A DNA stretch of 64,000 nt from Gemmataceae bacterium (GTDB lineage Bacteria; Planctomycetota; Planctomycetia; Gemmatales; Gemmataceae), in NCBI GenBank assembly GCA_003136315.1, contig PLDW01000516.1, positions 53,086 through 117,085 of the forward strand. The letters run 5' to 3'. Each line of letters begins with the position of its first letter. Position 1 is the first letter of the stretch. A model generated the notes under the pieces. That model searched no databases. It was not told the origin of the DNA and saw only the letters and a program-made list of their open reading frames with translations. This document shows positions 2,795-23,808 of the stretch, in pieces. Both the position numbers and the translations under genes were made by a program.

Positions 2795-3263
2795 GCTGCT
2801 CGATGGTGAGGCGGCGTTCGTCGGCAGGAAGTTCGAGGAAACAGAGCCTCATGTGGTCCCCTCAGCCAGCTCGCGGAAAATCGGGTGCATCCATGCGGGG
2901 GCGAGCCGCAAGCCCTTGATGAGTTCTCGCCGTTTCTCGGCCGGGAGGGTCCGCTTCAGGTGGTCCCGCCGCTCCGGGGTTATATGTTCTTCGCCGAGTT
3001 CCCGAAGGGCCTGAATCAGCAGGCCGCTCAACCGTCCGGCCGCCTCCATGTTCCTCGTGGTTGTTCGCCTCAATTGAATCGTGATGGGGCCGATCTCGAC
3101 CGTGCGGGCTGGGCCATCGGTCAGGAACACCGCCTTCGCTGGCACTTGCTCGGATAGACCCAGGGCATTTGCCGTATAGGCTCCCGCGGGTTGCAGGCGA
3201 GTGCGGTCGCGACCTGCCAATGCACGGGCAATCGCCTCGGCAGACGGTGACAACGGCCCCAGT
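2795..3263 (-). pseudogene. C-terminal part of a DUF6088/AbiEi-type antitoxin plus first ~19 codons of an AbiEii-type toxin
   Basis: LLGPLSPSAEAIARALAG...GAYTANALGLSEQVPAKAVFLTDGP lacks the N-terminal wHTH; the stop overlaps (ATGA) an ORF start MRLCFLELPADERRLTIEQ that then loses similarity. Confidence 0.75.
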
Positions 3264-3377
3264 AGTGCCCGGTTTAGTGCCCCCAGCGGCTGATTGTTCC
3301 AGCCAACGAGGCCGAACCTGTATCGCTGCCCCCAAGAACATTCTGTTTTCTTGCTGTGGCAGTGCCGTCCTGATCCC
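3264..3377 (+). repeat. diverged ~114-bp direct repeat, copy 1 (three AGTGCC motifs)
   Basis: First 20 bp agtgcccggtttagtgcccc identical to 14997-15016; similarity continues to gatccc at 3377 / 15111. Confidence 0.85.
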
Positions 3378-3403: not shown

Positions 3404-5410
3404 TCAATCAGTTGGTGCGAGTCCATGAGGTGGCGTTAAAAGTCGATCTGTGGGGATATGTGGGCCAACGATACTCAGAAGTGCCCGTTCGATACCAGAT
3501 CCTGGATTTCGAGCTGTCAGGATGTTTCCGGCGACGACACATGTCATCGACAGCAGGTCCACCAAGCCAAGAGAATGGGCTTCAGCCACTTTGAGCGCGG
3601 CTTCCCGCACTTTCACCGCAGTGCGAACGGCTAGCCCAGTCAACGGAGAAGCCGCTATCGCAGGATGCACTTTCAGAATGTCCTCCGCAGTGGTGCCATC
3701 GATGTAAATCGCTTTAAGGATTTCCTGCATCGTGCGCTCGTCGACAAGCATTCTCATCGCTGCTGACCTCACGATAGCATCGAGCCTTACCAAATCCTCC
3801 AGAGGATGTCCGGGGCCGCTATAGGCAAAATCGATGAACGCTGGACTTCGATCCAGCACCAGGATATTACGGCCGTGGATGTCGCCGTGAATCACCCCAC
3901 GGGCGGCGTTAGGCTCAAGGACTGTCATCGCATTTGCAACCAGCTCCGATAACTTCATGGGATGCCAATCCTGATCGATTATTTCAAAATCGATCCCATG
4001 CTGGGCGATACTGCGAATGGGCCAATTCAGCCAAAAAGTCCCCGTGTCCAAGGTGCGGTTAGGGCGAGAATTAAGATCAACCAGACGAGCGACTATACGC
4101 GATAAAGCCACAAACATGTCGTTAGATTTTTGCAAGGTCTGGTCGATTGAGACTAAGGAATTCCACTCTGACATTCGCAACTGTTCTAAACAGTCCTCCA
4201 GCGTGGGAGCTGGGGCGGCATTGCCATCAGGCGTTGCTTGCAAACGGTATGAAATCGCAGCACTACCCACATGGGAGTGGAAGGCAGGATCGGTAATGCT
4301 TGGTTCCCAGTTCTGAACCCATTTTCTGTACTTCTGAAGCTCTGATGAAAGTAATTCTGTTTCCCCAACCTTGGCCACAAAGGGCTGCGTTGTTCCGTCG
4401 CTCAACATAAATACGCGGGCTCCCGATTGCCCGCCCGCAAGTTCCCTCGTTCCTAACTTGCGAATACGAAGAGGATGGTCAGGATGCCTCCGGTTGGCTG
4501 CAATAAGGCGAAGCAGAGAGGCATCCGACTCGGAAAGGCCCAGTGGGAAAAAATCCGCTGCGTCAGCGTCCTCTTGAAATTGTGCAATCGACAGAAGAGT
4601 CGTGATGTCGGCCGGCGTCAGGTCACAGTCCAGCCCGTGGCAAAATTTCTCTCCGTCGAGTATTCCGCATCTGAAAGCGGCAGCATTTTTAGCAAAGGTC
4701 TCAGCATTCGCTGAGCTCAGTCCGTCTATCGACACGCGGACAAACAGAAATGTCGAATATTCGCAAAGTCGGCGAAGAGTGCGTTTCTGGTCGGTTTGAT
4801 TAACGTGCTCCCAAGCTGAAGCGCCTATGACAAAGCCACACAGACCAGTGATCGCAAGCTCCCAAAGTTGCTCAATGGTAGGAATCTGGAGTGGGGCGAT
4901 ATTGGCATTTGCCAACATTGATTTATTTCGCACATGCTCATCTGACGTTCCAATCAGTGCAACTGCACGGAACCTATCCGACTTTGGCGACTGAGTCATG
5001 CTTCCGCCTGACTCTTCGTGGTGAGGTGTACTCGGTTTTACAACAGGGGACGTGGACTGAGGCTGCTGCGGCCTCGCAGGTATCTGGAAAGCAAGATGCC
5101 GTAACTCGGGAGGTAAAAGAGTGCGGACGGCATTGAGTGCATCTGGTGATGTGCCCCGTAGAATTACCGCGATGGTTTCCAGGGAGGGAGGGTCATCCGC
5201 TACGATAGCAGAAACGACAAGCCGGAACCGGCGGTCGAATTCACGGCGCGTGATGCCAGGCTGTTCCTGAAGCCTTCGGACAAGCTGTCCGATGAGTGCT
5301 GGTTTATTTCGCACTTCGAATGCGACTCGCCGAAGCCGGTGCAGCGCACGATCAAACGTGCCCGTATCGATTTCCAGCAAATCTTGATCCCATTCAAAAG
5401 CCTGAGCCAT
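3404..5410 (-). CDS. kinase (APH/TCAD9-like phosphotransferase) with N-terminal helical and receiver-like regions
   Basis: ELAGGQSGARVF glycine loop, FVAKVG lysine, HGDIHGRNILV catalytic loop, FIDFA metal-binding motif. Confidence 0.8.
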   Translation of the reverse strand: MAQAFEWDQDLLEIDTGTFDRALHRLRRVAFEVRNKPALIGQLVRRLQEQPGITRREFDRRFRLVVSAIVADDPPSLETIAVILRGTSPDALNAVRTLLPPELRHLAFQIPARPQQPQSTSPVVKPSTPHHEESGGSMTQSPKSDRFRAVALIGTSDEHVRNKSMLANANIAPLQIPTIEQLWELAITGLCGFVIGASAWEHVNQTDQKRTLRRLCEYSTFLFVRVSIDGLSSANAETFAKNAAAFRCGILDGEKFCHGLDCDLTPADITTLLSIAQFQEDADAADFFPLGLSESDASLLRLIAANRRHPDHPLRIRKLGTRELAGGQSGARVFMLSDGTTQPFVAKVGETELLSSELQKYRKWVQNWEPSITDPAFHSHVGSAAISYRLQATPDGNAAPAPTLEDCLEQLRMSEWNSLVSIDQTLQKSNDMFVALSRIVARLVDLNSRPNRTLDTGTFWLNWPIRSIAQHGIDFEIIDQDWHPMKLSELVANAMTVLEPNAARGVIHGDIHGRNILVLDRSPAFIDFAYSGPGHPLEDLVRLDAIVRSAAMRMLVDERTMQEILKAIYIDGTTAEDILKVHPAIAASPLTGLAVRTAVKVREAALKVAEAHSLGLVDLLSMTCVVAGNILTARNPGSGIERALLSIVGPHIPTDRLLTPPHGLAPTD

Positions 5411-5416
5411 GAAGTC

Positions 5417-7321
5417 TTACCGGCCTGAGAAACCGTATTTTGCTTGACGACTCTTAAAGGCATCCTCTCCACCTTCAAGCAGCTTGATGATGGACTCTTT
5501 CATCGCATCCACCGAGCCGGACTCGCAGGGCAAGGCTTTCCGGGGGCCATCCATGTCCATGACGGTCACACACTCCGCTTCCCCCAGGACGGGGATATTG
5601 GCGTTGTGTGTGACAAAAATGAGCTGACGCCGTTGGCTGAGGACTTTTAAGCGTTCAATTAGTTTCTCCGACACGAATGCATTGTCGAGATCGTCTTCGG
5701 GCTGGTCTACGACGAGGGGATAGTCTGCCTCCCGCAGGATGAGGGGAAGCAATGCCGTTGCCATTTGCCCCTTGGAGAGATGTTCTATTGACCTGGCCTC
5801 TCCCCGAACCATCATGGTGATTTCAAGATTGTCCTCAGGAACAATGGCTTCCAGTTCGTAAAGCCGGATGTTGTCGAGAAGATGACTAACCAGCCTCGTC
5901 ATCTGGCCAAGATCCCTGCTTAAGGTTTCCGAAAGACGCTTCGAATCGCTACCTTCGATGATATCAATCAGGTCGGAGGGGCGAACTTTTTCCGCGAGGT
6001 CGCGAGCCACGTCTGCCTGGTTGCGCAAGTTCGACTTTTGGAGCAACTCCTCAATCAATTTCCGATGCGCTGCGGTAAGTACACCTTGTTCCAGCGTCAG
6101 GACAATTTGCTCGCCGAATTCAGAATTGATTTTCTCAACTTGCGCAAAACGCAGTGAATAGAGTTCATCGGCTAGCGCGTCACGTTGACCGCGCAAGTCC
6201 CGCCTACGTGCTAATTCCTTCGCATATTGTGCTCTCTGTTCATCAAGTTCTGCTGCGACGGACTCCATTGCCGCGACAGCCTGCCGGAGCGATTCCTCCG
6301 TTTTCAGCGCATCATTTACACTTTGCTGGTCTTTGCGAAGCTCGTAGTATTTCGCATTCATTGCTTCGAACTCGGAGCCAACCTGCGCCAAGGTCTCTTC
6401 CAGTGTCACTGGCTTCTCGACAATGGTACGGAAAGCAGGAAAACCGGCGACAAACGCCTCCATTGAGGAAGCAATGATAGCCGACCCCGAGGTTTTCAGC
6501 CCTTGGGCGAACGTGGCAGCCTCGCGCAGAGCTGCCTCTTCGGCAAGCATGGTACGCGCGGCGGTTGAAGCACGACCATAGGACTGGACTGCTACCTTCA
6601 GTCGCTCGAAAGCCTGGCGGCGCTCGTTGTAGGCGACCCGTTCAGCTTCAAGCTCTGGGGAGAGGTTTGGTCGACTCGATTGCAGTTCGCTGAGTTGTTT
6701 CCGGGATGGCTCAAGGGACTGTACCTTGGCTTGCCGTGATTCGATCTCGGTGCGGCGTTGGCGCATCTTCGGGCCGAGGGTCTTCAACTCCTCGGTTAAA
6801 TTCTTCATCCGGCTTTGTATGTCCTCAACCCGTTTCTGGTTTGGCCGGTCGATGAGTGCAAGCCGGCGATCTGGCCGTTCAGCAATGGTTTGCAGGTCGC
6901 CCTGTGAGAAAATCTCGATGCGATGGAGCACTGAGACATCGTCGATTTGCTGTACACCGTCCCGATAAACCCTCGAGTTCGCTGGAATGTTCCGTTCGAC
7001 AACATACTTGGACTGGGAGGGATCATCGGCAGCGGCTATGGTGCATTTTGCTGTTCCGCCTGCAAGCGTTTCCAAAAGGAAACCTGCTCTTGCCAACGCG
7101 CTGATCCCGCCCGTAGATTGGGAATTGGCCGACGAAACCATCGTTTGAATCTTCAATTGATCGCAATCGAAGACAAACCGGATAGTCTCAACGATCGTCG
7201 ATTTGCACGTCCCTCGTGCCCCGATGATGCAGTTAAGGCCAGGAGCAAACTCGATCGGACACGCCTGGAGGTAGCCACTGGTGGTTGTAAGCCGCTGTAA
7301 AGTCCATCTCATGCAATGCAC
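5417..7321 (-). CDS. SMC/Rad50-like AAA ATPase with long coiled coil (TrlF-like ATPase, no PHP domain)
   Basis: Walker A GARGTCKST, coiled coil, signature LSKGQ, Walker B/D-loop VVDQPEDDLD, H-loop VTHNAN. Confidence 0.88.
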   Translation of the reverse strand: MHCMRWTLQRLTTTSGYLQACPIEFAPGLNCIIGARGTCKSTIVETIRFVFDCDQLKIQTMVSSANSQSTGGISALARAGFLLETLAGGTAKCTIAAADDPSQSKYVVERNIPANSRVYRDGVQQIDDVSVLHRIEIFSQGDLQTIAERPDRRLALIDRPNQKRVEDIQSRMKNLTEELKTLGPKMRQRRTEIESRQAKVQSLEPSRKQLSELQSSRPNLSPELEAERVAYNERRQAFERLKVAVQSYGRASTAARTMLAEEAALREAATFAQGLKTSGSAIIASSMEAFVAGFPAFRTIVEKPVTLEETLAQVGSEFEAMNAKYYELRKDQQSVNDALKTEESLRQAVAAMESVAAELDEQRAQYAKELARRRDLRGQRDALADELYSLRFAQVEKINSEFGEQIVLTLEQGVLTAAHRKLIEELLQKSNLRNQADVARDLAEKVRPSDLIDIIEGSDSKRLSETLSRDLGQMTRLVSHLLDNIRLYELEAIVPEDNLEITMMVRGEARSIEHLSKGQMATALLPLILREADYPLVVDQPEDDLDNAFVSEKLIERLKVLSQRRQLIFVTHNANIPVLGEAECVTVMDMDGPRKALPCESGSVDAMKESIIKLLEGGEDAFKSRQAKYGFSGR

Positions 7322-7397
7322 CTCACAAACTAGAGTGAATCGAACGATATGCCAGCATCGTTCGATGTGGCGAATAGATCACTATCCAAGTAACGAG

Positions 7398-7820
7398 TCA
7401 TTTCTTTCCCTTCCGCATTCTTATGAAAGCTAAATATTTCAGTAGTTCATCTTCTTCTTCCGGAGTGAGTTGTTCTGATGCAAACGTGGGCAGACGGGAA
7501 CTTTTCTTGGACTTGGATTTGGCCGAGTCAACCGGCCGGATGTGTCCAGCAAGCTCCATCATTTTCTCATACGAGCACGAGATTGATGCATTCTTTGGCA
7601 GATACGTTTCATATACAGTTGATATTTCATGAAGGATCGCGGGCGAAGGGGTAGAGATTCGCCCAGTTTCGAGCTGGCTTAAGTAGGCATTGGATACTTT
7701 TCGTTCTGATGCTTCTTCTACCTCGCGCAAAGTCATATTGGCAGCCTTTCGGAGATCCCAGAGATATTGGCCCAGCGGCCCGCGCTCGGCTGGGGACAGG
7801 ATTGGGGTTTGCACGCTCAC
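7398..7820 (-). CDS. XRE-family HTH transcriptional regulator
   Basis: LRKAANMTLREVEEAS..VSNAYLSQLETG HTH_3 pattern; GTG start with GAGGAGG RBS. Confidence 0.9.
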   Translation of the reverse strand: MSVQTPILSPAERGPLGQYLWDLRKAANMTLREVEEASERKVSNAYLSQLETGRISTPSPAILHEISTVYETYLPKNASISCSYEKMMELAGHIRPVDSAKSKSKKSSRLPTFASEQLTPEEEDELLKYLAFIRMRKGKK

Positions 7821-7907
7821 GGTAAAGCCTCCTCATTTTAGGCTACTTTACTCTACCCGCTTACAAAATCAAGCGTGCTCAGCATTTGCGTTGTGAAATT
7901 TGCGTGC

Positions 7908-7935
7908 TTGACAGACTTAGCAGGCGCGGTATACT
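7908..7935 (+). promoter_or_regulatory. sigma70-type promoter of the Ubl operon, in a divergent intergenic region
   Basis: TTGACA 7908-7913, 16-bp spacer, TATACT 7930-7935; gcgtgct repeated at 7873 and 7902. Confidence 0.7.
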
Positions 7936-7990
7936 CACGTTGTCGAAATTCGACAGCTACTTAACCGCATTTTGAACAGGAGGTGCTCCG

Positions 7991-8719
7991 ATGGGTACTG
8001 AAACTCAGATCGTTGATGAACGCGAGCCGCGAGAGCTGCTGATCAACGTGGATGGCGATGACTTCCCCGTCCACGATCCTGTGGTGAGCGGACGCCGTGT
8101 GCTTGAGGTGGCAGGAAAGCTACCACCCGATGACTTCATCGTTTACTGGCTCGGCAGGGACAACGTGTTGCAGGATCTCGGCCTTGACCGCACGGTTCAC
8201 ATCCACGAGCAGCATGTCGAGCAGTTCCTGACTTTCGACAGCGATCGGTCTTACCGGTTCGAGATCGACGGAAAACGGGAAGACTGGGGATGCCCAACGA
8301 TCACAGAAGCGACGTTGCGAAAGCTGGCTGGCGTTGGCGAGGACTTTCGAGTGTGGCTTGAACGCAAGGGTGAACCAGCTCTCCTGATACCCCGCGGCAG
8401 TTCGGTCGACCTTGCGGCACCAGGGATCGAGCGATTCTACACCGAACGCATCTATTCAGTGGAAATCGTCAACGAAAACAACGGTGATGAATTTCGCCTG
8501 GAAGCCTACAAGCGCACCAAGATCGAGACGATCATCGGGGAAATGTACACCAGGCTCGGCGTTCCCCGTCGTCCCGATGACCGGCTCCGGTGCGAGAAAA
8601 CCGGGGAAGACGTCTTTGGGTTCGCCCAGCTCACCCTCGGGAAGTATCTGGAGGAAGGACATTGCCATTGCCTCGTCTGGTGCTTCGTTGGGGGCACCGG
8701 AGGTGCGTCATGCCGGTGA
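7991..8719 (+). CDS. bilA: multi-ubiquitin protein with three ubiquitin-like domains (BilA-like)
   Basis: Two Multi_ubiq-type repeats (INVDG..VVSGRRVLEVAG; FEIDG..TITEATLRKLAG) plus a third beta-grasp ending FVGGTGG-ASCR; AGGAGG RBS. Confidence 0.82.
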   Translation: MGTETQIVDEREPRELLINVDGDDFPVHDPVVSGRRVLEVAGKLPPDDFIVYWLGRDNVLQDLGLDRTVHIHEQHVEQFLTFDSDRSYRFEIDGKREDWGCPTITEATLRKLAGVGEDFRVWLERKGEPALLIPRGSSVDLAAPGIERFYTERIYSVEIVNENNGDEFRLEAYKRTKIETIIGEMYTRLGVPRRPDDRLRCEKTGEDVFGFAQLTLGKYLEEGHCHCLVWCFVGGTGGASCR

Positions 8720-9228
8720 GAACCCTCGCGCTGGCCGATCCCCAAATTGCGGCCGCGACATTCAAAGATCACCTTGACCGGCTCTGGCGCAATGGTCGCC
8801 CGGACCGGTTTGGCTGGGTCCGTAAAGATGTTGACAGTCTCCATACCCTCGTGACGCTCCCCGCCGAACGACCCACGGGCGAAAAGGATACCTATCACTT
8901 CCGGCTGGGCGCTGAATATTATGATGCAGCCCCTCCTACCGTGGCTCTCGTTCAACCGGATGGCTCGACACACACGGTTGGTGGTTCCCGATGGTTTCCA
9001 GTCCTGGAATCCCTGCCCGGATGGTTCGGGCTCCACGAGCACTACACGTGGCCAAACGGCACGCGGAGACAGCTTATCTGCTTCACCCTCTCGGCTGAGT
9101 TCTACATGACGGATCATTCGCCGAAAGAGTCGGAAGTCTGGAAACAAGGGCAGCACACGGTGGCGGCGACCCTCAACCGTCTGGCTGAGATATTGTCGCC
9201 CAAATACTACCGGAGACCTGCGGGATGA
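8710..9228 (+). CDS. bilB: E2-like ubiquitin-conjugating protein (BilB-like)
   Basis: YDAAPPTVALV E2 strand-turn motif and LICFTLSAEFY..H with candidate catalytic Cys; lies between Ubl and JAB; ATG at 8710 overlaps Ubl end. Confidence 0.75.
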   Translation: MPVRTLALADPQIAAATFKDHLDRLWRNGRPDRFGWVRKDVDSLHTLVTLPAERPTGEKDTYHFRLGAEYYDAAPPTVALVQPDGSTHTVGGSRWFPVLESLPGWFGLHEHYTWPNGTRRQLICFTLSAEFYMTDHSPKESEVWKQGQHTVAATLNRLAEILSPKYYRRPAG

Positions 9229-9767
9229 TCACCATACCGGAAACCATTTGGGCAAGCATGCTGGCTGAATTCGGAAAGGAGAAACGGCAAGTCGAACAGG
9301 TCTGCTATCTGGATGGCGTGATGGTCGAGGATGGTGGTGTTGTCACGACCATGACCATTCCGAGCGCAATACTCGAACCTGGCCGGTTCCATGTCGTTCC
9401 CGAAGCGATGAATCAAGCGGGTAAGCACTTGCGTGCCCTGCGGTTGCGCCGCCTTGCACAGGTGCATACACACCCAACTGAATGGACGGGGCATTCTCAG
9501 TGGGACAACGAATGGGCTTACTCACAATTGCCGGGGGCCATTTCGATCGTCCTGCCACACTTCGCCCGCACAAAGCCACGGCTTGAGCAGACGGGCGTCC
9601 ACCTCCGGACAAGTGCCGGATGGCGTCAACTTTCGCCTCAGGAAGTGCTCCTGCACCTCCGACTTGTTCCCGGTGTACTCGATTTCAGGAGGACCTATGA
9701 AACAGCGCGTATCGAGTCGGCACGAAAGCGATCTTGGTGGTCGTTTTTCACCTTTTGGAAGCATTGA
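9225..9767 (+). CDS. bilC: JAB/MPN metallo-isopeptidase (BilC-like)
   Basis: EQVCYL catalytic Glu and QVHTHP..WTGHSQWD (HxH-x7-S-x2-D) JAMM motif. Confidence 0.88.
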   Translation: MITIPETIWASMLAEFGKEKRQVEQVCYLDGVMVEDGGVVTTMTIPSAILEPGRFHVVPEAMNQAGKHLRALRLRRLAQVHTHPTEWTGHSQWDNEWAYSQLPGAISIVLPHFARTKPRLEQTGVHLRTSAGWRQLSPQEVLLHLRLVPGVLDFRRTYETARIESARKRSWWSFFTFWKH

Positions 9768-11187
9768 GCGAGTCGGTGTGACCGTTGAGATACCAGACAC
9801 CGTTGCCGGAATTGCATCCGTGCAACACACCGCCTGGATGCTGATCAACCTGCTTGCCCGGTTCGAGGGGGTGCTGCATCGCGTTGGTGTCCGCTGTCCC
9901 CGTGGCATACAGCTATGCGATCGTGTTGTCCCACTTGCTGCCAGGGATCTCGACCTGGCAACTGCCCTCGTAGCAGGGGGAACTGAGATCGGCGTTGTTC
10001 CTGTCGAGGAGGGTGTGACGCTTGAGCGAACGATTTGCCTCGGGCCAGTCCCGACCGATTCTGGTAAACCCGATCTCTTTGCGTTCGGGAGCGGCTGGTG
10101 TGGTGGTGTTTCGGTAAATGCACCCAGTTTCGCATTGCTGCAAAGTAGTTCACCGCTCCCTCTGGGACCATACATCGCGGCCTGCATTGCCGCAGGGGAG
10201 GTGTTTAAGGCAGCCCGGATGCAGGCCGGAACTTACTCGGCTCCAGCATCGGCCTTTTATTCCTGCTGGGAGCACCAGGCGTCCGAAAAGCCGCTTGGCG
10301 GCGGCCCTCAAGAAGTCGAGATCACACTCGACGCCGCGCTTGTCGGCGCGGGGGCGGTTGGGTCCGCAGGAATGCACTCCCTTTGGGCTTGTTCTGGGCT
10401 GGCCGGCTCGATGGCACTGATCGATAACGATCCCTTGGGAGTAGAGGCTACGAATCTCAATCGCTATTGCATTTTCGGAACGCGGGCAGTGGGTCGCCAA
10501 AAGGCTTCATTTGCCGCTGAGACGTTATCTGATGCCTCGATCCGGTGGTATCCTCATGATGGCGGAATCGAGTCTTTTACGCTCAATTCGTCGCGGGTAC
10601 TCTCAGCCGTGGACCGCAACACATCGCGCGTGGCCATCCAGAACCAATACCCTGCCAGGATTTTTTCGGGCTCCACATCGGACCTGAGAGCGGAGGTTCT
10701 GCGCTGCGGCCCTCCGGGGATTGGGGCTTGCTTACGATGCTTCAATGAACCCGAAAGGATCGAACCAGATGAGGAACTCCGGTCAAGACTCAGGGCTGCT
10801 CGCGATGACGAACTTGAAGCATTGGTTCAATCGGCCGGTCTTGCGATGGCAGACGCCAGGGAATGGATTGCATCGGGAAGGTGCGGCGTAGCTGGCGAGC
10901 GTCTGTTGCCGCTACTACGGCAAAACGAAGGTGAGCCAGCATTCGCAGTTGGATTTGTCTCCGTTATGGCGGGAGTGATGCTTGCCGCGGAACTGTTGAA
11001 GGATCACCTTGTTCATTCCGGCCCCCTCTCGCAATCCCTCCAGAGAGCCACCTTCCAGTTTTTCTCTCCTCTCGCGCGGTCGAACCGGGCGATTGCGTTT
11101 CTTCGTGATCCCCGATGTTCGATGTGTGCCCCCGATTCGATTGCGACCCGCATCTGGGGACAGCGATTCGGCAGCATCTCTGGCTGA
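9697..11187 (+). CDS. bilD: E1-like ThiF adenylyltransferase (BilD-like), 496 aa
   Basis: GAGAVGS, DND..EATNLNRY, SAVDRNTSR, Zn pairs CLRC and CSMC; ATG 9697 with AGGAGG RBS. Confidence 0.88.
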   Translation: MKQRVSSRHESDLGGRFSPFGSIERVGVTVEIPDTVAGIASVQHTAWMLINLLARFEGVLHRVGVRCPRGIQLCDRVVPLAARDLDLATALVAGGTEIGVVPVEEGVTLERTICLGPVPTDSGKPDLFAFGSGWCGGVSVNAPSFALLQSSSPLPLGPYIAACIAAGEVFKAARMQAGTYSAPASAFYSCWEHQASEKPLGGGPQEVEITLDAALVGAGAVGSAGMHSLWACSGLAGSMALIDNDPLGVEATNLNRYCIFGTRAVGRQKASFAAETLSDASIRWYPHDGGIESFTLNSSRVLSAVDRNTSRVAIQNQYPARIFSGSTSDLRAEVLRCGPPGIGACLRCFNEPERIEPDEELRSRLRAARDDELEALVQSAGLAMADAREWIASGRCGVAGERLLPLLRQNEGEPAFAVGFVSVMAGVMLAAELLKDHLVHSGPLSQSLQRATFQFFSPLARSNRAIAFLRDPRCSMCAPDSIATRIWGQRFGSISG

Positions 11188-11682: not shown

Positions 11683-12348
11683 TTACGCGCGTTTCCATTG
11701 AATAAACAGGCGTTCGTGTTCGACATCCGGAAGGCATGTGTCAAAAGCTGAGCAGGACCATTTCCGCAGTTCCTCGCAGGCCTGCCATTGCTCGGGGTAG
11801 AAGTGGGCGAAGGTGAACCGGACGAAGTGTCCGAGACTCAGTGGAGCAAAGACCGGAATTCGGCTTGTGAGCCGCGAGATGGTCAGGTGCGAGGGCGGGT
11901 GGTCCAGAGTCCCGGAGTCGATGTCGTAGTCGAAGCGAATTGCCCCTTCAATCCGCAATCGGTCCCTCAATTCGCGGCCATCGAACAACTGGAGCAACTC
12001 GGCGATTGTGTAGTGTTGAAGCTCAAGAGGTTGAAAAAAGATTGGACATGGGTGGTACGATAAGCGGTGCTTCTTTAGGGTGTTTCCTTTGAAAGTGTAG
12101 GAAAACTGGAGGAGGGCGCCGTCGCTTAGAACGACAGAGTACCACCGGTTGTCAAGGGTGGTGATGTATTCCTGAAGAGTTGAGGTTTGGCCGAACAACT
12201 CTGACAGGGACATGTTGTTGCTCCACGTGACGATGGTCTCTCCGTGGGACGTCAGGTTGAGCACGGGAGAACTGTCGATGGCCACGCCGATGCCGAAGAG
12301 CGTGGTGATGAGGCGTTCGACCTCGTTACGAGCCTGGGCGGGCGTCAT
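11683..12348 (-). CDS. DUF2290-domain protein
   Basis: DGALLQFSY..KHRLSY.PCP and IRFDYD....HPPSHLTI...RIPV motifs; immediately downstream of a helicase. Confidence 0.85.
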   Translation of the reverse strand: MTPAQARNEVERLITTLFGIGVAIDSSPVLNLTSHGETIVTWSNNMSLSELFGQTSTLQEYITTLDNRWYSVVLSDGALLQFSYTFKGNTLKKHRLSYHPCPIFFQPLELQHYTIAELLQLFDGRELRDRLRIEGAIRFDYDIDSGTLDHPPSHLTISRLTSRIPVFAPLSLGHFVRFTFAHFYPEQWQACEELRKWSCSAFDTCLPDVEHERLFIQWKRA

Positions 12349-12364
12349 TACGTACCCCTAGGAT

Positions 12365-14515
12365 TCAGCTACCCTCGAGTGCTTTTAGCAACTTCTCCCG
12401 CAGTTCGTCTGGGATGTCGTCGAGAGTCATTTCCTCTCGCTCCAATAGTTCAAGCACCTGGAGGATGGACTTCCTTCCAGTGTGTATCTTCTGCAGCTCG
12501 TCTTCCGTTCTGTCGCGGTGAATGCGACGCATTTTGACTACCTCCTCCTGCGTGGGGTATTTGAATGACAGCGTGTAATTGTTATCGACGACCTGCTTCC
12601 ACTCTTCGGTCAAAAGGGCCATGCCGTCGCCAACTCCGCAGATACGCACCCAGGCACGTGATCGCGTGATGGCAGTGAAGAGAATGCTCCGACGACGGAT
12701 CGACCCTCCCCACCCACCAGCGCAGAATTCCGAGTTCAGGACGTACACCACCGCCGCCTCGTTGCCCTTCGCGCGGTAGATGCCTGAGATGGCGATGGAA
12801 TTAGCTACGTGGAATTCGTTCAGCCCGCGCGTGACCCCTGTAATGTGAGATTCGATACGTCTGGCCCGAAGTTGAGCAACGAGTGGCCCCGCGTCCTGAG
12901 CCGCAGTTACGGGATCGGTGAAGATAACTACGATATCGCTCGGTTCCAACTCGTCCTTTTCCAGATTCTCCTGAATCTGGGTGGCGACCCACTTTGCCTG
13001 CTCGGAGTGCGAGGTGAAACCATGCACTTGGACGGCATCATCAGGCGTAAGCAGTTTCCGGAAAAAGTCCGGCGTGGCGTCCGCTCGCCGCTGGAGGGTT
13101 ACCGAAGACCCGGCGGAAAGGTCACCGTTCGTCAGTTCGTAGCCGATGTCATGCCACAACGATGTGTCCTCGAACATCTGGATCAGGCCACCCTTGCGGT
13201 AGACACCGAATCCAAGTGCGTGCGCAGTAATCAAGGCCCACGGCGTGTTGCGATAGCAGACGGGCAGGATGATATCTTGGTGCGGTTGCGATTCGGCATT
13301 GCGTAGCTTTACCCTCGCCTCGCCTTCCTCATCAGTACCGAATAGCACCTTGAGATTCGGAACGGCAGTCTCCTTAAGGCTTTGTAGCTCATCATATGCC
13401 CATACGAAACGGTGTGGCGATCGTGTGCTGGCGTAGAGTAGGCGGAAGAAATTCGGCCCAAAGTCTTGGGCCTCGTCCACGAGCACGGCGTCAAAAAGCG
13501 CCTTTACGCCTTTGCTTTCTCTACTACGGATCTCCTTGATCGCCTCGCCGCAGATGCCTTCAAAGGCACCGGCAGCCATGTAACGCTGCTTGGCGTAGGA
13601 GTAATCTCTCACAATAAAATTATTTGCGCTTCCGATCAGGGAATAAACGCCCGGGTCCCTCTGGCCGCCCCACGCGTGAAGGACACGAAGTTTCTCCCAG
13701 TTGGGCTCGTCGCCGACGTGTTCAAACATGAACCGCCGGATGAGGTCCTGAAATTGGCCGTAAAGGGCGCGGGTCTGAAAGGTGACTAAGATGTTCCAGT
13801 CCGGATGCTGGGCATGCAGATACGCTGCTTTCAGCGCGAGGACCACTGTCTTCCCCGACCCTGCCAATCCTCTGATGCGTTGCGGCCCTTCCGGGCATTC
13901 GATCGCGGCCTTTTTCTGCCACCTGTCAAGGTTGGCAATCTCTCGCTCGATATGCTTGAGGATGCCACCCTTTGAATCCGCTTGTGTAACACTCGCCCGC
14001 TTTTTTTGGGGCTTGATGTTGATGACTTGCTGGATCGAGGCATTCAGGGCGCGTATATACTTCCGGTCAATGCCTTTGATAGCAGCGAGCGTGACCGAAA
14101 GTTCGCCGTGAGCGGCGATAATCAGGTTGTCGCTCGCGGGCAGTTTGACTGGTTTGCAGGGGAGATATGTGATGATACTGATCGGGGTCGCCAAATCGCG
14201 CTTTATCGTCAATTCCTTATGGCGTATTAATCTAGACTTCAGTGCTAGCTCGATTTCTGTTTGCCGCTCCTCCACCGCCGCCCACTCGGTCGGAGTGCTG
14301 TTACCGCTGGCTCGCGGACCCGCTGTGAGGTCGAAAACAACGATGCCATGCTCCACCGACGTCAGAATGGCATCCAGCGACAAGGACATGTCAGCGGTCG
14401 AGAGGATCGGGTATCCGACATAGAGTGTAGCGTCGGTCAAGGGGATCGCCTTCAACTCGTGGAGCAGATGCGCCACGGCTGTGGAATTAACGCTCGTCCC
14501 GATGACGTGGTCCAT
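12365..14515 (-). CDS. superfamily I DNA/RNA helicase (partner of DUF2290; helicase+DUF2290 defence system)
   Basis: GLAGSGKT, VLVDEAQD, YDELQ, YRN, IYRAKGNEA, FTAITRSR; ATG 14515 has AGAGG RBS. Confidence 0.9.
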   Translation of the reverse strand: MDHVIGTSVNSTAVAHLLHELKAIPLTDATLYVGYPILSTADMSLSLDAILTSVEHGIVVFDLTAGPRASGNSTPTEWAAVEERQTEIELALKSRLIRHKELTIKRDLATPISIITYLPCKPVKLPASDNLIIAAHGELSVTLAAIKGIDRKYIRALNASIQQVINIKPQKKRASVTQADSKGGILKHIEREIANLDRWQKKAAIECPEGPQRIRGLAGSGKTVVLALKAAYLHAQHPDWNILVTFQTRALYGQFQDLIRRFMFEHVGDEPNWEKLRVLHAWGGQRDPGVYSLIGSANNFIVRDYSYAKQRYMAAGAFEGICGEAIKEIRSRESKGVKALFDAVLVDEAQDFGPNFFRLLYASTRSPHRFVWAYDELQSLKETAVPNLKVLFGTDEEGEARVKLRNAESQPHQDIILPVCYRNTPWALITAHALGFGVYRKGGLIQMFEDTSLWHDIGYELTNGDLSAGSSVTLQRRADATPDFFRKLLTPDDAVQVHGFTSHSEQAKWVATQIQENLEKDELEPSDIVVIFTDPVTAAQDAGPLVAQLRARRIESHITGVTRGLNEFHVANSIAISGIYRAKGNEAAVVYVLNSEFCAGGWGGSIRRRSILFTAITRSRAWVRICGVGDGMALLTEEWKQVVDNNYTLSFKYPTQEEVVKMRRIHRDRTEDELQKIHTGRKSILQVLELLEREEMTLDDIPDELREKLLKALEGS

Positions 14516-14771
14516 TTTTGAACCTCTGGGCATCGCCCAGCACCTGACCACTGGCTGGTGGCATTCTCCGACTTTCTGATAGCCGCAGCAAGACGCTGGC
14601 CGCCCCTTCTCTACTTCGCTGAGGTTGCCAGGGCCAGAATAATCGCTAACCCTCTGTCTTCGCTTATGTTACGGCTTCGTAGTCACGAGGAATGCCTGGT
14701 TTTATTGATAATTCATGTTACCCTGGAAGCGGTTGCTTTACGAGGTCGGTTGGCCTTTCCCGACGCCTTAC

Positions 14772-14996: not shown

Positions 14997-15111
14997 AGTG
15001 CCCGGTTTAGTGCCCCTGGGGGCTGACTGTTCCAGGCAAAGAGGCCTAACCTCTATCCCTGCCACCCAGAATCTGTCGTTTTCCTTTTGTGGCAGTGCCC
15101 GTCCCGATCCC
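14997..15111 (+). repeat. diverged ~115-bp direct repeat, copy 2
   Basis: Aligns with 3264-3377. Confidence 0.85.
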
Positions 15112-15259: not shown

Positions 15260-16078
15260 ATGATCGGCATCCAGGAGTTTATCGATTCCCAGCTTGCCCT
15301 GGGGCGCGCATACTTCAGCAAACCGACCGCCCTGGCGGCGGTTGGGATGACGCTACACGCATTCGAGTCGGCAATCGCGCGACTCCACAAGAAAGGCGTG
15401 CTCGTTTCCCCGCGCCGGGGATTTTACCTGATTCTCCGGCCTGAGGATCGGCAACTCGGTGCCCCTGATCCCGCCCGCTGGATTGATCCGCTGATGAAGC
15501 ATCAGGGGGTCGATTATCGAATCTCGCTGCTGCGAGCGGCTGCCTTCCACGGATCGGCGCACCAGGCCGCCATGTGCTTTCAGATCATCGCACCGAGCCA
15601 GCTTCTAAACATTGAGATCGGACGCCAGCGGGTCGAGTTTGTGTTCCAGTCCGCCGCTGCCTTTGCCCAATCGAATCGGCCTGAGTGGCTCGGGCAGTTG
15701 AAAACGGATGCGGGTTTTGCCAAAGTCGCGGGCGTCGAACTGACCCTGCTTGATATCTGCCGCTATTTCCATCGGGCGGCCGGGATCAATGGTGCCGCAC
15801 AGGCGGTCCATGACCTCGGGAAGAACGCCAATTCACGTATCCTCGCCAAGGCGGCCGGCGCTTATGAGAATGCCGCCGTCAGGCGGCTTGGTTATCTTCT
15901 GGAGCGGTTCGGGCATCAACGGCAGGCCGAGGCGCTCAGGTCATTCGCCGATAAAGCGAAATCCTTCAAGGCGCTCGATCCATCTGTGAAACCGCTCGTT
16001 GCCGAGTTGAGTGACGTGGAGGAGAAAAATCCGGACTGGAAGCTTGTCATCAATGTAGCAGTGGAGATAGACGTTTGA
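15260..16078 (+). CDS. abiEi: type IV TA antitoxin, AbiEi family
   Basis: N-terminal wHTH (RLHKKGVLVSPRRGFYLI), YRISLLRAAAFHG..HQA motif, ELTLLD. Confidence 0.88.
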   Translation: MIGIQEFIDSQLALGRAYFSKPTALAAVGMTLHAFESAIARLHKKGVLVSPRRGFYLILRPEDRQLGAPDPARWIDPLMKHQGVDYRISLLRAAAFHGSAHQAAMCFQIIAPSQLLNIEIGRQRVEFVFQSAAAFAQSNRPEWLGQLKTDAGFAKVAGVELTLLDICRYFHRAAGINGAAQAVHDLGKNANSRILAKAAGAYENAAVRRLGYLLERFGHQRQAEALRSFADKAKSFKALDPSVKPLVAELSDVEEKNPDWKLVINVAVEIDV

Positions 16079-16950
16079 TACCGATATCGCATTTGCAGGC
16101 ATGGACCGCACAGGCCCCCTGGCCTGATCTGCGGCAGGTGGAACAGGACCTGGTCATCTGCCGAGCCCTGTGCGACCTGTTCAGCAGCGAGCAACTGAAA
16201 GGCAAGATCGCTTTCCGTGGCGGCACCGCCATTCACAAACTGTTGTTCAAAAGACCGCTGCGATACTCGGAAGATATCGATCTTGTCCAGACAACGCCTG
16301 AGCCGATTGGCAAGACGGTCGATGAAATACGGGCGGCCCTGGCGTGGCTGGGAAAATGCAAACGGGAACAAGCCCCCCACTCGATGCACATGGTGTTCAA
16401 GTTTACACCGGAAGCAGGCGGTAGCCCGCTCAAGCTGAAGGTCGAGATCAACACCCGTGAGCAGGAAAACCTCCATGACCTGAAAACCTACCCATTCGTT
16501 GTCAGTAGCGATTGGTACAATGCACAAGCGGAGATTGTCTCATTTGAGCCGGAAGAGCTGTTTGGAACCAAGCTGCGGGCACTGCTCCAGCGAAACAAAA
16601 ACCGCGACCTGTTCGACCTGAACGAAGGATTGAGCCAGCTCGGCCTGGACTGCAATCGGGTGGTTGCCTGCTTTCAGCATTATCTCGGACTGGAGGGCCG
16701 GCCGATCAGCCGGGCTAACGCTGAGGAAAGGATGCTGAAGAAACTCAACCAGAGCCTCACTGAAGATATCGCTCCCTTACTTCCTCCCGGCGTGGGGTTT
16801 ACCGATGATGATGCCATTGTGGCGTTTGGGAGAGTGTGGGCAGAATTGATCACTCGGCTTCCCGGCGATCCCTGGAAATCGTCTGGCACCGCCATCGAGG
16901 CTATCCGCAAAACGAAAATCCCGACGCTGCTCTACGGTGTCCATGAATGA
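16075..16950 (+). CDS. abiEii: type IV TA toxin, AbiEii nucleotidyltransferase
   Basis: QVEQD, FRGGTAIHK..RYSEDIDL, KLRALLQR...RDLFD; overlaps antitoxin stop. Confidence 0.92.
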   Translation: MIPISHLQAWTAQAPWPDLRQVEQDLVICRALCDLFSSEQLKGKIAFRGGTAIHKLLFKRPLRYSEDIDLVQTTPEPIGKTVDEIRAALAWLGKCKREQAPHSMHMVFKFTPEAGGSPLKLKVEINTREQENLHDLKTYPFVVSSDWYNAQAEIVSFEPEELFGTKLRALLQRNKNRDLFDLNEGLSQLGLDCNRVVACFQHYLGLEGRPISRANAEERMLKKLNQSLTEDIAPLLPPGVGFTDDDAIVAFGRVWAELITRLPGDPWKSSGTAIEAIRKTKIPTLLYGVHE

Positions 16951-20932: not shown

Positions 20933-21418
20933 CTAGCCGAACAGCCTCCTCATGATCCTCCCAAACCAGCCAGCCTGAGTGGGGTTTGCCGGTGTGGGCG
21001 GTGAAGCCGCTGCCATAGGGACCGGCGACAGGGGGATCGGGGACAACACAGAGGGAGAGGCAAGAACGTCGGGTCTCGGCTTCAGGCAGTCGATGTAGTT
21101 TGACTTGGCCTGCGAGTCAGCGGCCTGCCCGGCTTCGATTTCGGCACTGGACCACTGACTCGCCCACCTTATCTGGTTGTGGGTTATCCAGTAGTGGGAC
21201 TTGCACGGGAGGCTCCAGCTCCCTATCGATGGATAAAGGGAGATCGTCCGCCCATCGTAGATCAACTGCCAGTCGGCGGGGGACAGCGGCGTCACGACCT
21301 CGTTGCCACAGCCACAACAGCATTTGTGGACTACGGTTGCGTAGATCATCGAGATGTAGAGAGTTCCTTCTTGCAGGACGTCGGGAACGAACTCAACAAA
21401 CACTGGCGTGATTACCAT
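20933..21418 (-). CDS. DUF6527-family protein
   Basis: HKCCCGCGNEVVTPLSP..W......SLYPSIGSWSLPCKSHYWI; start overlaps upstream ThiF end. Confidence 0.88.
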   Translation of the reverse strand: MVITPVFVEFVPDVLQEGTLYISMIYATVVHKCCCGCGNEVVTPLSPADWQLIYDGRTISLYPSIGSWSLPCKSHYWITHNQIRWASQWSSAEIEAGQAADSQAKSNYIDCLKPRPDVLASPSVLSPIPLSPVPMAAASPPTPANPTQAGWFGRIMRRLFG

Positions 21419-22598
21419 TTTGCTCGCCCAGTTGGTCGCCGTTAATGAGCCCGCCAGTCCGCACGTTGTAAAACGAGTTATGCTCCTGCGGAACATCGTG
21501 GTAAAAGCCAAACAGCTTCTTCCATTTGACGACGGCAAGAGCCGCATTGAGGCAATTCAGGTCTGCGATCTGGATGTTCGTGGAGTAGGCGTCGTCAACA
21601 TCGTCCACGAGCGAAACCCGGCGGCGCACGTGGTCACGCTTCGAGGGCGTGCTTGTGGTGACCCGGACCAGCCCGGACAACGCCCCGTCCTCCTGCGCCA
21701 ACCCCATACCGACATCGATAAAGGGAGTGCCCCACTCCTCCAACCTGGTGATCAGCGTCTTCTTGTACTTGCCGCCGTCGCAGCAGATGAAGACGAACTT
21801 CATCCCCCGGAGGCTTTCGACGTTGCTATCGTCGATGTACTCTGGGTGTGCGTGGATGCCCCGTCGCATGTTTGAGTAGAAGTCCCTGAAGTAGACCACC
21901 TTGTACTCGATCGATCGGAGGATTTCGATCGTCGGAGCACCGGGTGACCTGAAGGCGTTGTGGTTCAGAAACCGGTCCCCGTCGAACAGGTGTATCTCCT
22001 TGACAGGGCACTTCGCCAGGAGGTCGAGCACATAGGAGCCGGTGCCCCCAAGGCCCACGATGGCGACCTTCTCCAACTCCAGCTTGGCGGTAAGGGTGGT
22101 GATCCCGGCCCGGCTTGAGGCGGTGTCGGGGTAGCAGAAGACCGACTCGTCCTCAGTGGTTTCGGCGATTTTGTAGGTCTGGGCGGTCACCGTATTGTCG
22201 ATCGCTCTCGCCGGGGGCGTGATCATCTCGACGTAACGGGTGATCTGCTCGTAGTAGCCGGGGTAGCCCTCTGGCGGCTTGTTTGAGAAAGATCGGTTGG
22301 CTGTGAGGCTGTCGCTAATGTGGTAGGGGGTGGTAGTGTGCTTCAAGCCGGTTATCTCGGTCCCGTCGATATTGCACGGGTGGTCACCGATGAAGTAGGC
22401 AACGTGGGTGTCGGGTTTCTGGACCATGTCGCCCGCGATGACGAGCTTGACGGCGAGAACCCCATACGCGACCTCCTTGCCGGAGTTCACGTAGGGGATG
22501 TGCCCCACGAGGAGGTGGCTTGCGACCACCTCCAGTTCATACCCGTTGTCGCGGAGCCTGACGAGGTCCGGGCTACGAGCGATTAGTTGACTTGACAT
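21393..22598 (-). CDS. E2-like (DUF6791-type) + ThiF/E1 fusion protein
   Basis: N-terminal VGHIPYVN...HVAYFIGDHPC...FSNKP; C-terminal IVGLGGTGSYVLD, LFDGD..LNHNAFRSPG, FICCD, QIADLNCLNA. Confidence 0.88.
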   Translation of the reverse strand: MSSQLIARSPDLVRLRDNGYELEVVASHLLVGHIPYVNSGKEVAYGVLAVKLVIAGDMVQKPDTHVAYFIGDHPCNIDGTEITGLKHTTTPYHISDSLTANRSFSNKPPEGYPGYYEQITRYVEMITPPARAIDNTVTAQTYKIAETTEDESVFCYPDTASSRAGITTLTAKLELEKVAIVGLGGTGSYVLDLLAKCPVKEIHLFDGDRFLNHNAFRSPGAPTIEILRSIEYKVVYFRDFYSNMRRGIHAHPEYIDDSNVESLRGMKFVFICCDGGKYKKTLITRLEEWGTPFIDVGMGLAQEDGALSGLVRVTTSTPSKRDHVRRRVSLVDDVDDAYSTNIQIADLNCLNAALAVVKWKKLFGFYHDVPQEHNSFYNVRTGGLINGDQLGEQNGNHASVC

Positions 22599-22848
22599 CG
22601 AATATCATCCTGTTCTTGCCTTCAACCGATTCCCCAGGGGCGAGAGTGCCTTCGTGGTGGCCCTCTCTGTAGGCCACGGAGATCACCTTGTCGGGGGCGG
22701 GGGTAAACCCAGCCAAGGTCACGATCTCGTCATAGGTCAGCAGCCCCTTCTTCACCCTCTTCTCTCGTCCGTTCACGATGATCACGATCTCGTCGTGGTG
22801 CCCGTGGGCGTCGTGACCTGGGAAGGACTTTTCGGCGGTGCTTTCCAT
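22573..22848 (-). CDS. single multiubiquitin-type Ubl with His-rich N-terminus
   Basis: IIVNGREK....LTYDEIVTLAG...VAY...GTLAPGESV....MIFDVKSTNRS*. Confidence 0.82.
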   Translation of the reverse strand: MESTAEKSFPGHDAHGHHDEIVIIVNGREKRVKKGLLTYDEIVTLAGFTPAPDKVISVAYREGHHEGTLAPGESVEGKNRMIFDVKSTNRS

Positions 22849-23136
22849 GTGAACTATTTCTGCCGTGTAAAACGGCGTTACGTGTGTGGACCCTGTTTCG
22901 GGAGGGCGCTGGAACCCGCAGGGTAGTTGGAACACCGGCCTTTTGGTGAGCGGCTATAGGCGCGAGGTCCGACCCCTGGTTAGGATGGGCGATTAGTCAT
23001 CTGCCCCTGGAAGGAAATACGACCGGGTGTAACAGCCCTCGCCTTTCGACAGAAGACGGCCACACCGGGCGGCTTGTAAGGAACTACGAGGGTGCGTAAC
23101 AGGTTGGGGGGGTGTTACGGGCCATCGTAGAAAGAG

Positions 23137-23808
23137 TTGCAGCAGGATGCTGGTTCTGAAGACGAGCGAGATATGGCCAGCCAAGAATCACCCGAGGATG
23201 AAAACACCCGATTAGCGATATCGCTACTCGACGATAATGAGGACGCCCTCAAGGAGATGCTGCGCCGGTACGGTCCGGACATCATCAAAGTCCTGCACGC
23301 CAAGTTCACCTTGCGGCTGAAGTCTCTAACGTTAGAGGACATCGAGGACGTGGTGGCGGTTGCCATTCACCGCATCTGGGACGCCCGGAAGGTATATGAC
23401 GACAAACAACAGTCACTCCGCGTCTGGTTCTACTGCATCGCCGAGAACGTGGCGAAAGATGTATTGAAACACGGCTGGTACAAGGCCCGCCGCCTGGAGC
23501 GAAACCCGGGGCAGGACTGGCTTGAAGCTCGTCCCGACTGTGCCGTTCACGAGCCGCAGATGCAGAAGAAGGACGAGAGGCGGAAAGAGTCGAAGCGGAT
23601 GCAGGATCTCGCTACGGTTGTGAACAAACTTCCAGAGGTTCAGCGTAGAATATTATTGACGGACGCTGCCATGCGCGACGGTGTGGCCTCAAGCGAACTG
23701 CTTGCCAACGAACTCGACATCCCCGTCGCCCACGTCCGCGTCTACCGCTTTCGGGGAATGGCGACCGTTCGAAAAGAGATGACGAAACTTGGGCATGACA
23801 TTCCCTGA
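23137..23808 (+). CDS. sigma-70 family (ECF-like) RNA polymerase sigma factor
   Basis: Region 2 DIEDVVAVAIHRIW..SLRVWFYCIAENVAKD; region 4 LPEVQRRIL..ELANELDIPVAHVRVYRFRG; start may be 23173. Confidence 0.85.
   Translation: MQQDAGSEDERDMASQESPEDENTRLAISLLDDNEDALKEMLRRYGPDIIKVLHAKFTLRLKSLTLEDIEDVVAVAIHRIWDARKVYDDKQQSLRVWFYCIAENVAKDVLKHGWYKARRLERNPGQDWLEARPDCAVHEPQMQKKDERRKESKRMQDLATVVNKLPEVQRRILLTDAAMRDGVASSELLANELDIPVAHVRVYRFRGMATVRKEMTKLGHDIP

Follow-up and report, generated by a model that had tools for sequence, protein, structure and literature searches.

In this study, a three-gene unit encoding an XRE-family repressor, a coiled-coil ATPase of the ATP-binding cassette/structural maintenance of chromosomes (ABC/SMC) type and a kinase of the TCAD9/APH fold was analysed in a stretch of 64,000 nucleotides (nt) of a Gemmataceae bacterium (hereafter the window; contig C516 of an 11.6-Mb genome). 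This triad lies back-to-back with a Bil-like operon for the conjugation of ubiquitin-like (Ubl) proteins, and the two share a control region with a pair of predicted operators that is conserved in all related loci bearing the repressor gene. The ATPase and kinase genes were found next to Ubl operons in two different gene orders. Tentatively, and with slightly less than even confidence, they are read here as an immune-type sensor ATPase and kinase that would be co-expressed, and work together, with Ubl conjugation.

A control region shared with ubiquitin-like operons

An earlier note on this DNA, made from the sequence letters alone, had proposed that the three genes form one minus-strand unit, separated by a divergent region of 170 base pairs (bp) from a Bil-like operon. 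All three open reading frames (ORFs) are in place, the region between XRE and Bil measures 170 bp exactly (7821-7990) and the divergent operon contains the genes expected of a Bil-like system. The features concerned are as follows:

7398-7820, minus strand: XRE-family repressor gene (140 amino acids), first gene of the unit
5417-7312, minus strand: coiled-coil ABC/SMC-type ATPase gene (~631 amino acids), a PHP-less relative of Ppl/TrlF
3404-5410, minus strand: TCAD9/APH-fold kinase gene (668 amino acids)
7339-7366, minus strand: hairpin (stem of 9-11 bp) within the XRE-ATPase spacer, without a U-tract
7858-7878, no strand assigned: predicted operator O2, GCACGCTTGATTTTGTAAGCG on the minus strand, overlapping the -35 element of the XRE promoter
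7902-7922, no strand assigned: predicted operator O1, consensus TGCTTGAT-N4-TCAAGCAyGC, overlapping the -35 element of the Bil promoter
7908-7935, plus strand: predicted sigma-70 Bil promoter TTGACA-16-TATACT, near-consensus (11/12 matches)
7991-11187, plus strand: Bil-like operon (Multi_ubiq, E2-like, JAB/BilC, E1/BilD)
7991-8719, plus strand: Multi_ubiq Ubl gene of this operon
~8660/8710-9228, plus strand: E2-like ORF of this operon
9225-9767, plus strand: JAB/BilC gene (PADLOC BilC, 4e-12)
~9700-11187, plus strand: E1/BilD gene (PADLOC BilD, 2.5e-14)

The GTG start of the XRE gene agrees with the N-termini of its homologues. The ATPase ORF spans 5417-7321, with a possible GTG start at 7321, and the ATG at 7312, which has a GAGGTG Shine-Dalgarno sequence ahead of it, is likely the true start. 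The kinase gene begins 6 nt past the ATPase stop codon. The XRE-ATPase spacer has 85 nt in the window and 56-85 nt in most loci; in one of them (L014) the two genes overlap by 4 nt and therefore their co-transcription is likely. The hairpin in this spacer was ruled out as a conserved attenuator, being unconserved in the other loci, devoid of a U-tract and not significant (z-score -0.85); it may modulate read-through or be without meaning.

The product of the first gene matches the Pfam families HTH_31 (2.8e-8) and HTH_3 and is composed of a helix-turn-helix (HTH) domain (residues 16-72), a variable linker rich in Ser and Lys, and a conserved C-terminal helix (LTPEEEDELLKYLAFIRMRKGKK). Its match to the PADLOC capH model is weak (E-value 0.0012).

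Approximately 100 bp upstream of XRE are conserved at the DNA level in 11/11 XRE-bearing loci, irrespective of the divergent genes. Two predicted palindromic operators, O1 and O2, lie in this region ~40 bp apart. The O2 consensus (GCAyGCTTGATTTTGTAAGCA) is nearly invariant in all 11 loci, and L014, L016, L017 and L020 have a perfect palindrome (GCTTGA-N4-TCAAGC) at O1. The XRE promoter is weaker than that of Bil, with a -35-like element TTGATT (7867-7872) and a -10-like element TAAAGT (7845-7850). Operators and promoter geometry are kept in each of the 11 loci, and loci with a Bil and with a Bub partner (see below) even have the 5' leader of their Ubl gene in common. Since the conserved operators overlie both promoters, one repressor would govern both units, in line with the co-regulation of the triad and the Ubl operon suggested earlier. 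The protein binding O1 and O2 is presumably XRE, considering the palindromes and the behaviour of this regulator family, and the two predicted sites constitute a defined regulatory element. A perfect palindrome (GCTTGACTGTTCAAGC) fitting the operator half-sites was also found at 34580-34595, within an 89-amino-acid ORF beside an ArdC-like gene. Located inside an ORF and expected by chance 0.09 times per window, it is probably fortuitous and was not accepted as a third XRE operator.

In the tree of ATPase plus kinase, the loci with XRE fall into a single clade (Shimodaira-Hasegawa-like approximate likelihood ratio test, SH-aLRT, 100), and a divergent Ubl operon adjoins XRE in 9 of the 11. The partner is of the Bil type in the window, L002 and L003 (orthologous operons beside the triad) and a type II Bub operon (BubA Multi_ubiq, BubBD DUF6791-ThiF and BubE DUF6527) in L001, L016, L017, L019 and L020; in L007 a BubA-like partner gene is interrupted by the contig end and was counted as type II Bub. 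Only 17 of the 401 phylum genomes have BubE, approximately once each, and the likelihood of a chance adjacency is therefore negligible. In the tree the Bil-linked window is sister to the Bub-linked L007, and both group with L014 and then with L001/L019, apart from the Bil-linked L002 (SH-aLRT 95-99). The Bub partners constitute two deep lineages, with BubBD proteins 36-38% identical and ATPases 71-78% identical. Because the partners depart from the module tree and the Bub lineages are deep, at least three Ubl operon lineages (Bil and the two of Bub) have been joined to one module.

A second gene order is found in a sister clade without XRE (L010 and L059-L061), in which BubA, BubBD, BubE, ATPase and kinase genes follow one another in one direction. 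This Bub-pair operon is faced by a divergent module composed of a sigma-like gene, a small protein gene and an M78 peptidase gene, and the flanks of the Bub-pair element, which is the same in L059 and L060, differ between these two loci. Two gene orders, both of them Ubl-partnered, are a classical signature of functional coupling. The link to Ubl operons, put forward earlier for the window, thus recurs both as divergent Bil or Bub operons in 9/11 loci and within the Bub operon of the sister clade.

A further arrangement was observed in L018 (3025-7552), a prophage-like contig with a terminase gene nearby, where a 139-amino-acid gene with a weak HTH and an M78 peptidase gene lie directly upstream of the pair, and a short ThiF gene and two small genes lie 3-5 kb off on the other strand.

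The position of the pair at the 3' end of the Bub operon in L010 and L059-L061, where a separate sigma-like/M78 regulator is present, bears on an alternative reading of the triad as a fourth 'Cap'-type controller. According to this, DNA damage or infection would be sensed by the ATPase, and XRE, once phosphorylated by the kinase, would leave O1/O2, so that Bil or Bub is induced. It has a precedent, as CapK phosphorylates CapS and CapP cleaves CapH in the 'controllers of adjacent pathways' of the Corbett laboratory (PMC13373217). It would also account for XRE being the first gene of a unit divergent from an immune operon, like capH-capP (with the weak capH match), for the dual operators over both promoters, and for a triad and control region that stay constant while the partner is swapped, as in a portable controller. 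The sister clade argues against it, and so do L018, where HTH and M78 genes stand upstream of the pair as though the pair were regulated cargo, the stand-alone pairs described below, which have no transcription factor beside them, and the ~1300 residues of sensor and kinase, which are heavy for a regulator. We regard it as unlikely and retain the reading of an ATPase and kinase that work with Ubl conjugation.

The ATPase, the kinase and their pairing

The ATPase matches the Pfam families SMC_N and AAA_21, with additional coiled-coil matches. It carries the Walker A motif GARGTCKS, the Q-loop SQGD, the signature LSKGQ, the Walker B motif VVDQPEDDLD and the H-loop THN; all five (Walker B as hhDQPEDDLD) are invariant in 14 orthologues. 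The Cys in place of Gly in Walker A, which the earlier note had read in the window and considered worth checking in homologues as possible decay, was found in 109/109 readable N-termini among 120 homologues of 41-96% identity, and DQPEDDLD in 116/116 among the same 120. This conservation rules out decay of Walker A. The canonical GARGTGK[ST] is confined to more distant relatives (26-33% identity) with other partners, which mostly have the same DQPE (four have DEPE) and which include ~900-amino-acid proteins (L049, L051 and L053) with DQPEDDLD, long enough for an N-terminal extension of the PHP type. The Gln of Walker B was likewise ruled out as the mark of a dead copy, as it occurs superfamily-wide, including PHP-fused Ppl-like proteins. 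Judged from these alignments, the Walker B Gln is a trait of the superfamily and the Walker A Cys a mark of the kinase-linked clade.

When aligned to the SMC head 5h68, the D-Q of the family falls on the D-Q of 5h68 itself, at the Walker B position. ABC and SMC heads with a Glu-to-Gln exchange at Walker B still bind ATP and engage, with hydrolysis slowed. As its native DQ resembles that of hydrolysis-dead EQ mutants, the ATPase would be an ATP-dependent switch and not a motor.

Comparison with curated families placed the ATPase near Ppl and TrlF. It scored 278.6 bits against NCBIfam TrlF (NF045780; cut-off 350; model positions 298-944) and 143.7 bits against NCBIfam Ppl (NF042955; cut-off 1000), and matched PADLOC Ppl (PDLC02208) at 1.6e-27 over model positions 276-889. 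No PHP domain was detected in it with Pfam, and the alignments begin only at model positions 270-276 (Ppl) and 298 (TrlF). On this evidence the protein is homologous to the ATPase part of PHP-ATPase proteins and is itself PHP-less.

The kinase matches the Pfam families TCAD9 (PF19974; 65.2 bits, gathering cut-off 40) and APH (1.1e-11). An AlphaFold2 model built from 39 homologues (predicted local distance difference test 83, predicted template modelling (TM) score 0.71) consists of a helical N-terminal domain (residues 1-107), a disordered linker (111-143), a five-stranded alpha/beta domain (149-283) and the kinase domain proper (318-651). Foldseek related the latter to APH(3')-Ia, amicoumacin kinase, methylthioribose kinase and the peptide kinase TvaE, and since both kinds of enzyme are among the matches, the fold cannot separate a small-molecule from a peptide substrate. 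The G-rich loop, K347, E357, H508-G-D510, N515 and D527 are invariant in the 39 homologues, down to 38% identity, and from this catalytic set we infer that the kinase is an active enzyme.

The alpha/beta domain was compared using a separate model of residues 1-310. It resembles CheY-like receivers (TM-score 0.55-0.6, weak E-values in Foldseek) and has two conserved motifs, GT..EH after strand 1 and G.SAW after strand 3. The acidic pocket and the phospho-acceptor Asp at the end of strand 3 are absent from it, and thus it is a pseudo-receiver. The domain organization proposed in the earlier note was therefore borne out for the helical N-terminus and the APH-fold kinase, and the receiver-like segment is corrected to a pseudo-receiver.

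Searched with a profile, 1.84 billion representative proteins yielded 187 kinase clusters at E<=1e-30, nearly all of full three-domain length, which makes this a small, diverse and coherent family. A scan of viral contigs for the kinase gave one weak partial match only, and in the literature on TCAD9 no function beyond 'APH-like kinase' was found.

Adjacency of the two genes, judged only in related loci with readable flanking DNA, was found in genome contigs (L001-L004), metagenome contigs (L007-L011) assemblies (L014-L021 and L059-L061) and the more distant L022-L024, in all of which the kinase gene directly follows the ATPase gene. This holds even for ATPases of only 41-45% identity (L022-L024). 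The kinase diverges much faster than the ATPase (25-27% vs 41-45% identity). In these three loci the pair is located after a type I restriction-modification locus (L022, Tautonia), next to sugar-kinase genes in an alphaproteobacterium (L023) and after the bacteriophage exclusion (BREX) genes PglZ/BrxL (L024). The exception is G261, where an ATPase of 44% identity is followed by a gene of the metallo-beta-lactamase fold. ATPases of the Cys type occur in 3/401 genomes of the phylum sample and close orthologues are rare. The conservation as neighbours anticipated in the earlier note thus extends well beyond the window, and gene order marks the ATPase-kinase pair as a conserved and mobile module of two genes, which is also found by itself next to restriction and BREX genes.

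A related arrangement was noticed in other Planctomycetota (L031-L036 and others; genomes G006, G396, G237, G269, G037 and G178). Their ATPases (~30% identity, GARGTGKT, DQPE) are followed by a HEAT-HisKA-HATPase_c histidine kinase gene and a receiver gene, a combination for which no description was found; these relatives suggest a wider 'ATPase plus kinase' theme.

The suggestion that the module is undescribed has held so far. The kinase has no match in PADLOC and the ATPase matches only the ATPase part of Ppl, while its scores remain below the family cut-offs. Assignment of the pair to a PADLOC system (Ppl, PDC-M49, MADS mad3, Lamassu or PARIS) was rejected, the matches being partial or weak and those of the kinase none. 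No description of the module was found in the literature on TCAD9, Ppl and ATPase-kinase systems.

The APH fold, typical of small-molecule kinases, together with the location of L023 beside sugar-kinase genes, could also point to a non-immune role, that is stress or DNA-damage signalling in large planctomycete genomes, in which a metabolite or housekeeping protein would be the substrate of the kinase, and protein quality control the task of the Ubl system. It is in keeping with this that phage protection by Bub is not yet demonstrated (bioRxiv 10.1101/2024.11.21.623953). Such a role is highly improbable in view of the patchy, mobile distribution (the 3/401 phylum genomes mentioned above), the presence of the same element in different flanks in L059 and L060, and neighbours that comprise type IV secretion, transposase, restriction-modification, BREX and toxin-antitoxin genes.

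A proposed mechanism and its weighing

In the favoured reading, the triad and Bil units would be repressed, and released together, by XRE at O1/O2. The ATPase would be an ATP-dependent sensor switch that engages on a cue of infection or damage, like other defence sensors of the ABC/SMC type. Once engaged, it would relieve the kinase, otherwise restrained by its pseudo-receiver and helical N-terminal domains. The freed APH-fold kinase would phosphorylate a protein or a small molecule, and its output would act alongside Bil conjugation; candidate substrates are the Ubl machinery, its targets, XRE, and a host or phage protein. We infer, accordingly with this scheme, a biochemical link between the pair and Ubl conjugation.

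Several observations weigh against this reading. Stand-alone pairs without XRE or Ubl genes (L022-L024 and L004) indicate that the pair can exist independently of a Ubl system. Two XRE-bearing loci have kept the triad and its operators but have no Ubl operon: L021 has no divergent Ubl partner, and the divergent genes of L014 are unrelated to Ubl (they encode a Zn-ribbon-like protein of 97 amino acids and two secreted proteins, and were rejected as a hidden Ubl system). Within 1.5 kb of other Bub loci in the phylum sample the pair was found in 0/17 cases, which makes it an infrequent accessory rather than part of the Bub core. Being related, the 11 loci are not independent events and are conservatively counted as three partner lineages and one operon fusion. 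Contact between the ATPase and kinase, as well as sensing by the ATPase, are proposed by analogy, and the substrate of the APH-fold kinase may be a small molecule instead of a protein.

The stand-alone pairs in restriction-modification and BREX islands would also fit two independent defence systems with a shared switch, namely an abortive-infection pair similar to HipBA or Stk2, with XRE as its autorepressor and Bil merely co-expressed, without cross-talk. The dense defence island to which the window belongs, and the TrlR-TrlF-TrlG operon, which has the same layout of regulator, ATPase and third gene and is growth-restricting when induced, are likewise compatible with it. What makes it rather unlikely is the identity of the partner, which is Ubl in 9/11 loci and never another known defence system, despite at least 2-3 replacements; crowding of the island does not predict such Ubl specificity, and an independent operon fusion with Bub has occurred in the sister clade. 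Functional cooperation with the Ubl pathway is thus considered more likely than mere co-expression.

A stronger form of this cooperation would be phosphorylation-coupled Ubl conjugation. In it, the pair would represent the missing input or specificity device of the Bil and Bub systems, which have no E3, and the kinase would license conjugation upon sensing of infection by targeting the Ubl protein, the E1/E2 enzymes or the target proteins, akin to PINK1/phospho-ubiquitin or phosphodegrons. If true, this would explain the recruitment of three unrelated Ubl operon lineages to one module and could explain the lack of phage protection by Bub operons expressed alone. We hold this form to be not very probable.

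The biochemistry of Bub operons has been characterised, while their biological role and trigger are not known, and the target choice of Bil is partly understood. A sensor-type ATPase and a kinase wired to Ubl operons in two gene orders constitute a testable lead on how these systems are triggered. The pair also adds a kinase-output branch, marked by a strictly conserved P-loop Cys, to the Ppl/TrlF ATPase superfamily.

The surrounding island and comparison with known systems

As judged from its gene content, the window lies within a dense defence island carried by a mobile element. The features around the triad and the Bil operon are:

1653-2695: HTH_17 (excisionase-type) and PIN_3/VapC50-like gene pair
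2849-3253: 5'-truncated AbiEi/DUF6088 gene
3264-3366, plus strand: left copy of a 103-nt direct repeat
11683-14551, minus strand: genes for a DUF2290 protein (221 amino acids; PADLOC 'DUF2290', 2.9e-34) and a UvrD-like helicase (728 amino acids; PADLOC 'Helicase', 7.8e-230)
14997-15099: right copy of the 103-nt direct repeat (82% identity to the left copy)
15260-16950: AbiEi/AbiEii genes
20933-21547, minus strand: BubE of a second Ubl system
21393-22598, minus strand: BubBD of the same system
22573-22935, minus strand: BubA of the same system
23137-23808: sigma-like gene, divergent, facing the second Bub operon
24006-25085: M78 peptidase gene, in one module with the sigma-like gene and a 136-amino-acid gene

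The HTH_17 and PIN_3/VapC50-like pair is also present in L016 (12025-13072) and L017 (3794-4841), beside the triad or its Ubl partner, in flanks that are otherwise different. The DUF2290-helicase block, located between Bil and AbiE, is a known candidate system in its own right. The 103-nt repeats bracket the triad, the Bil operon and this block, and the left one abuts the truncated AbiEi/DUF6088 gene. A third copy, on genome contig C30 (172-705), runs into an AbiEi paralogue (89% over 535 nt). Their role as att sites of a cassette was not supported; since the repeats are copies of the AbiEi gene leader, a recombination scar is more likely.

The second Ubl system, on the minus strand in the region 20933-25085, is of type II Bub. 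Together with its regulators it has the same layout as L059-L061, and downstream on the same strand it is followed by a 439-amino-acid gene and AbiT-like genes, not by the ATPase-kinase pair. Type II Bub operons therefore seem to bear exchangeable 3' cargo.

Among known systems, the ATPase is closest to the Ppl/TrlF superfamily, with which it shares an ABC-type head, a coiled-coil insert and the Walker B motif DQPE[DN][DN]LD, and its alignment to their ATPase part covers its full length. It differs from them by the lack of a PHP domain, by scores below both curated cut-offs and by the Walker A Cys. Moreover, it is paired with a separate TCAD9/APH kinase and not with a fused nuclease-type domain or an AlbA_2-HATPase_c_4 partner. 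The order of small regulator, ATPase and third gene is that of the Photorhabdus trlR-trlF-trlG operon, which restricts growth upon induction.

With CapH+CapP and CapK+CapS the triad has in common a repressor-containing module placed divergently from Bil or Bub operons at a shared promoter region (PMC13373217), with binding predicted for XRE, and CapK+CapS offers a precedent of a kinase switching the repressor of an immune operon. In contrast to CapH+CapP, the unit at 3404-7820 has no M78/ImmA-type peptidase, and M78 genes occur only in the sister-clade loci (L018 and L059-L061). Unlike CapK+CapS, its kinase is of the APH/TCAD9 type and not HTH-STAS-GHKL, its repressor is an XRE of the HTH_31 family and not a STAS-winged HTH protein, and no STAS or HATPase_c domain was found in it with Pfam. 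In addition, it contains an SMC-like ATPase that the Cap modules do not have, and the pair of the sister clade lies inside the regulated operon.

Another group consists of PARIS (AriA/AriB), Lamassu (LmuB/LmuA), Septu and Gabija, in which a coiled-coil/ABC ATPase is likewise found beside an enzymatic partner in defence islands. Matches of the ATPase to PADLOC AriA, LmuB, GajA and PtuA were weak and covered only the P-loop or the C-terminal head. The AriB Toprim, LmuA/LmuC, PtuB HNH and GajB helicase partners are absent, the partner in the window being a kinase. The likeness to HipBA/HipBST and Stk2 concerns the XRE-family autorepressor, the palindromic operators and a kinase expected to be harmful when unleashed; the window kinase is, however, TCAD9/APH and not HipA or Hanks-type, the ATPase is obligatory and there is no sign that XRE neutralises the kinase. 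The partner operons themselves belong to the Bil (BilABCD) and type II Bub families, neither of which has been described with an XRE-ATPase-kinase module. In its gene composition, the module thus resembles both the ABC-ATPase sensor-effector systems and the XRE-kinase modules, yet falls outside each of the families considered.

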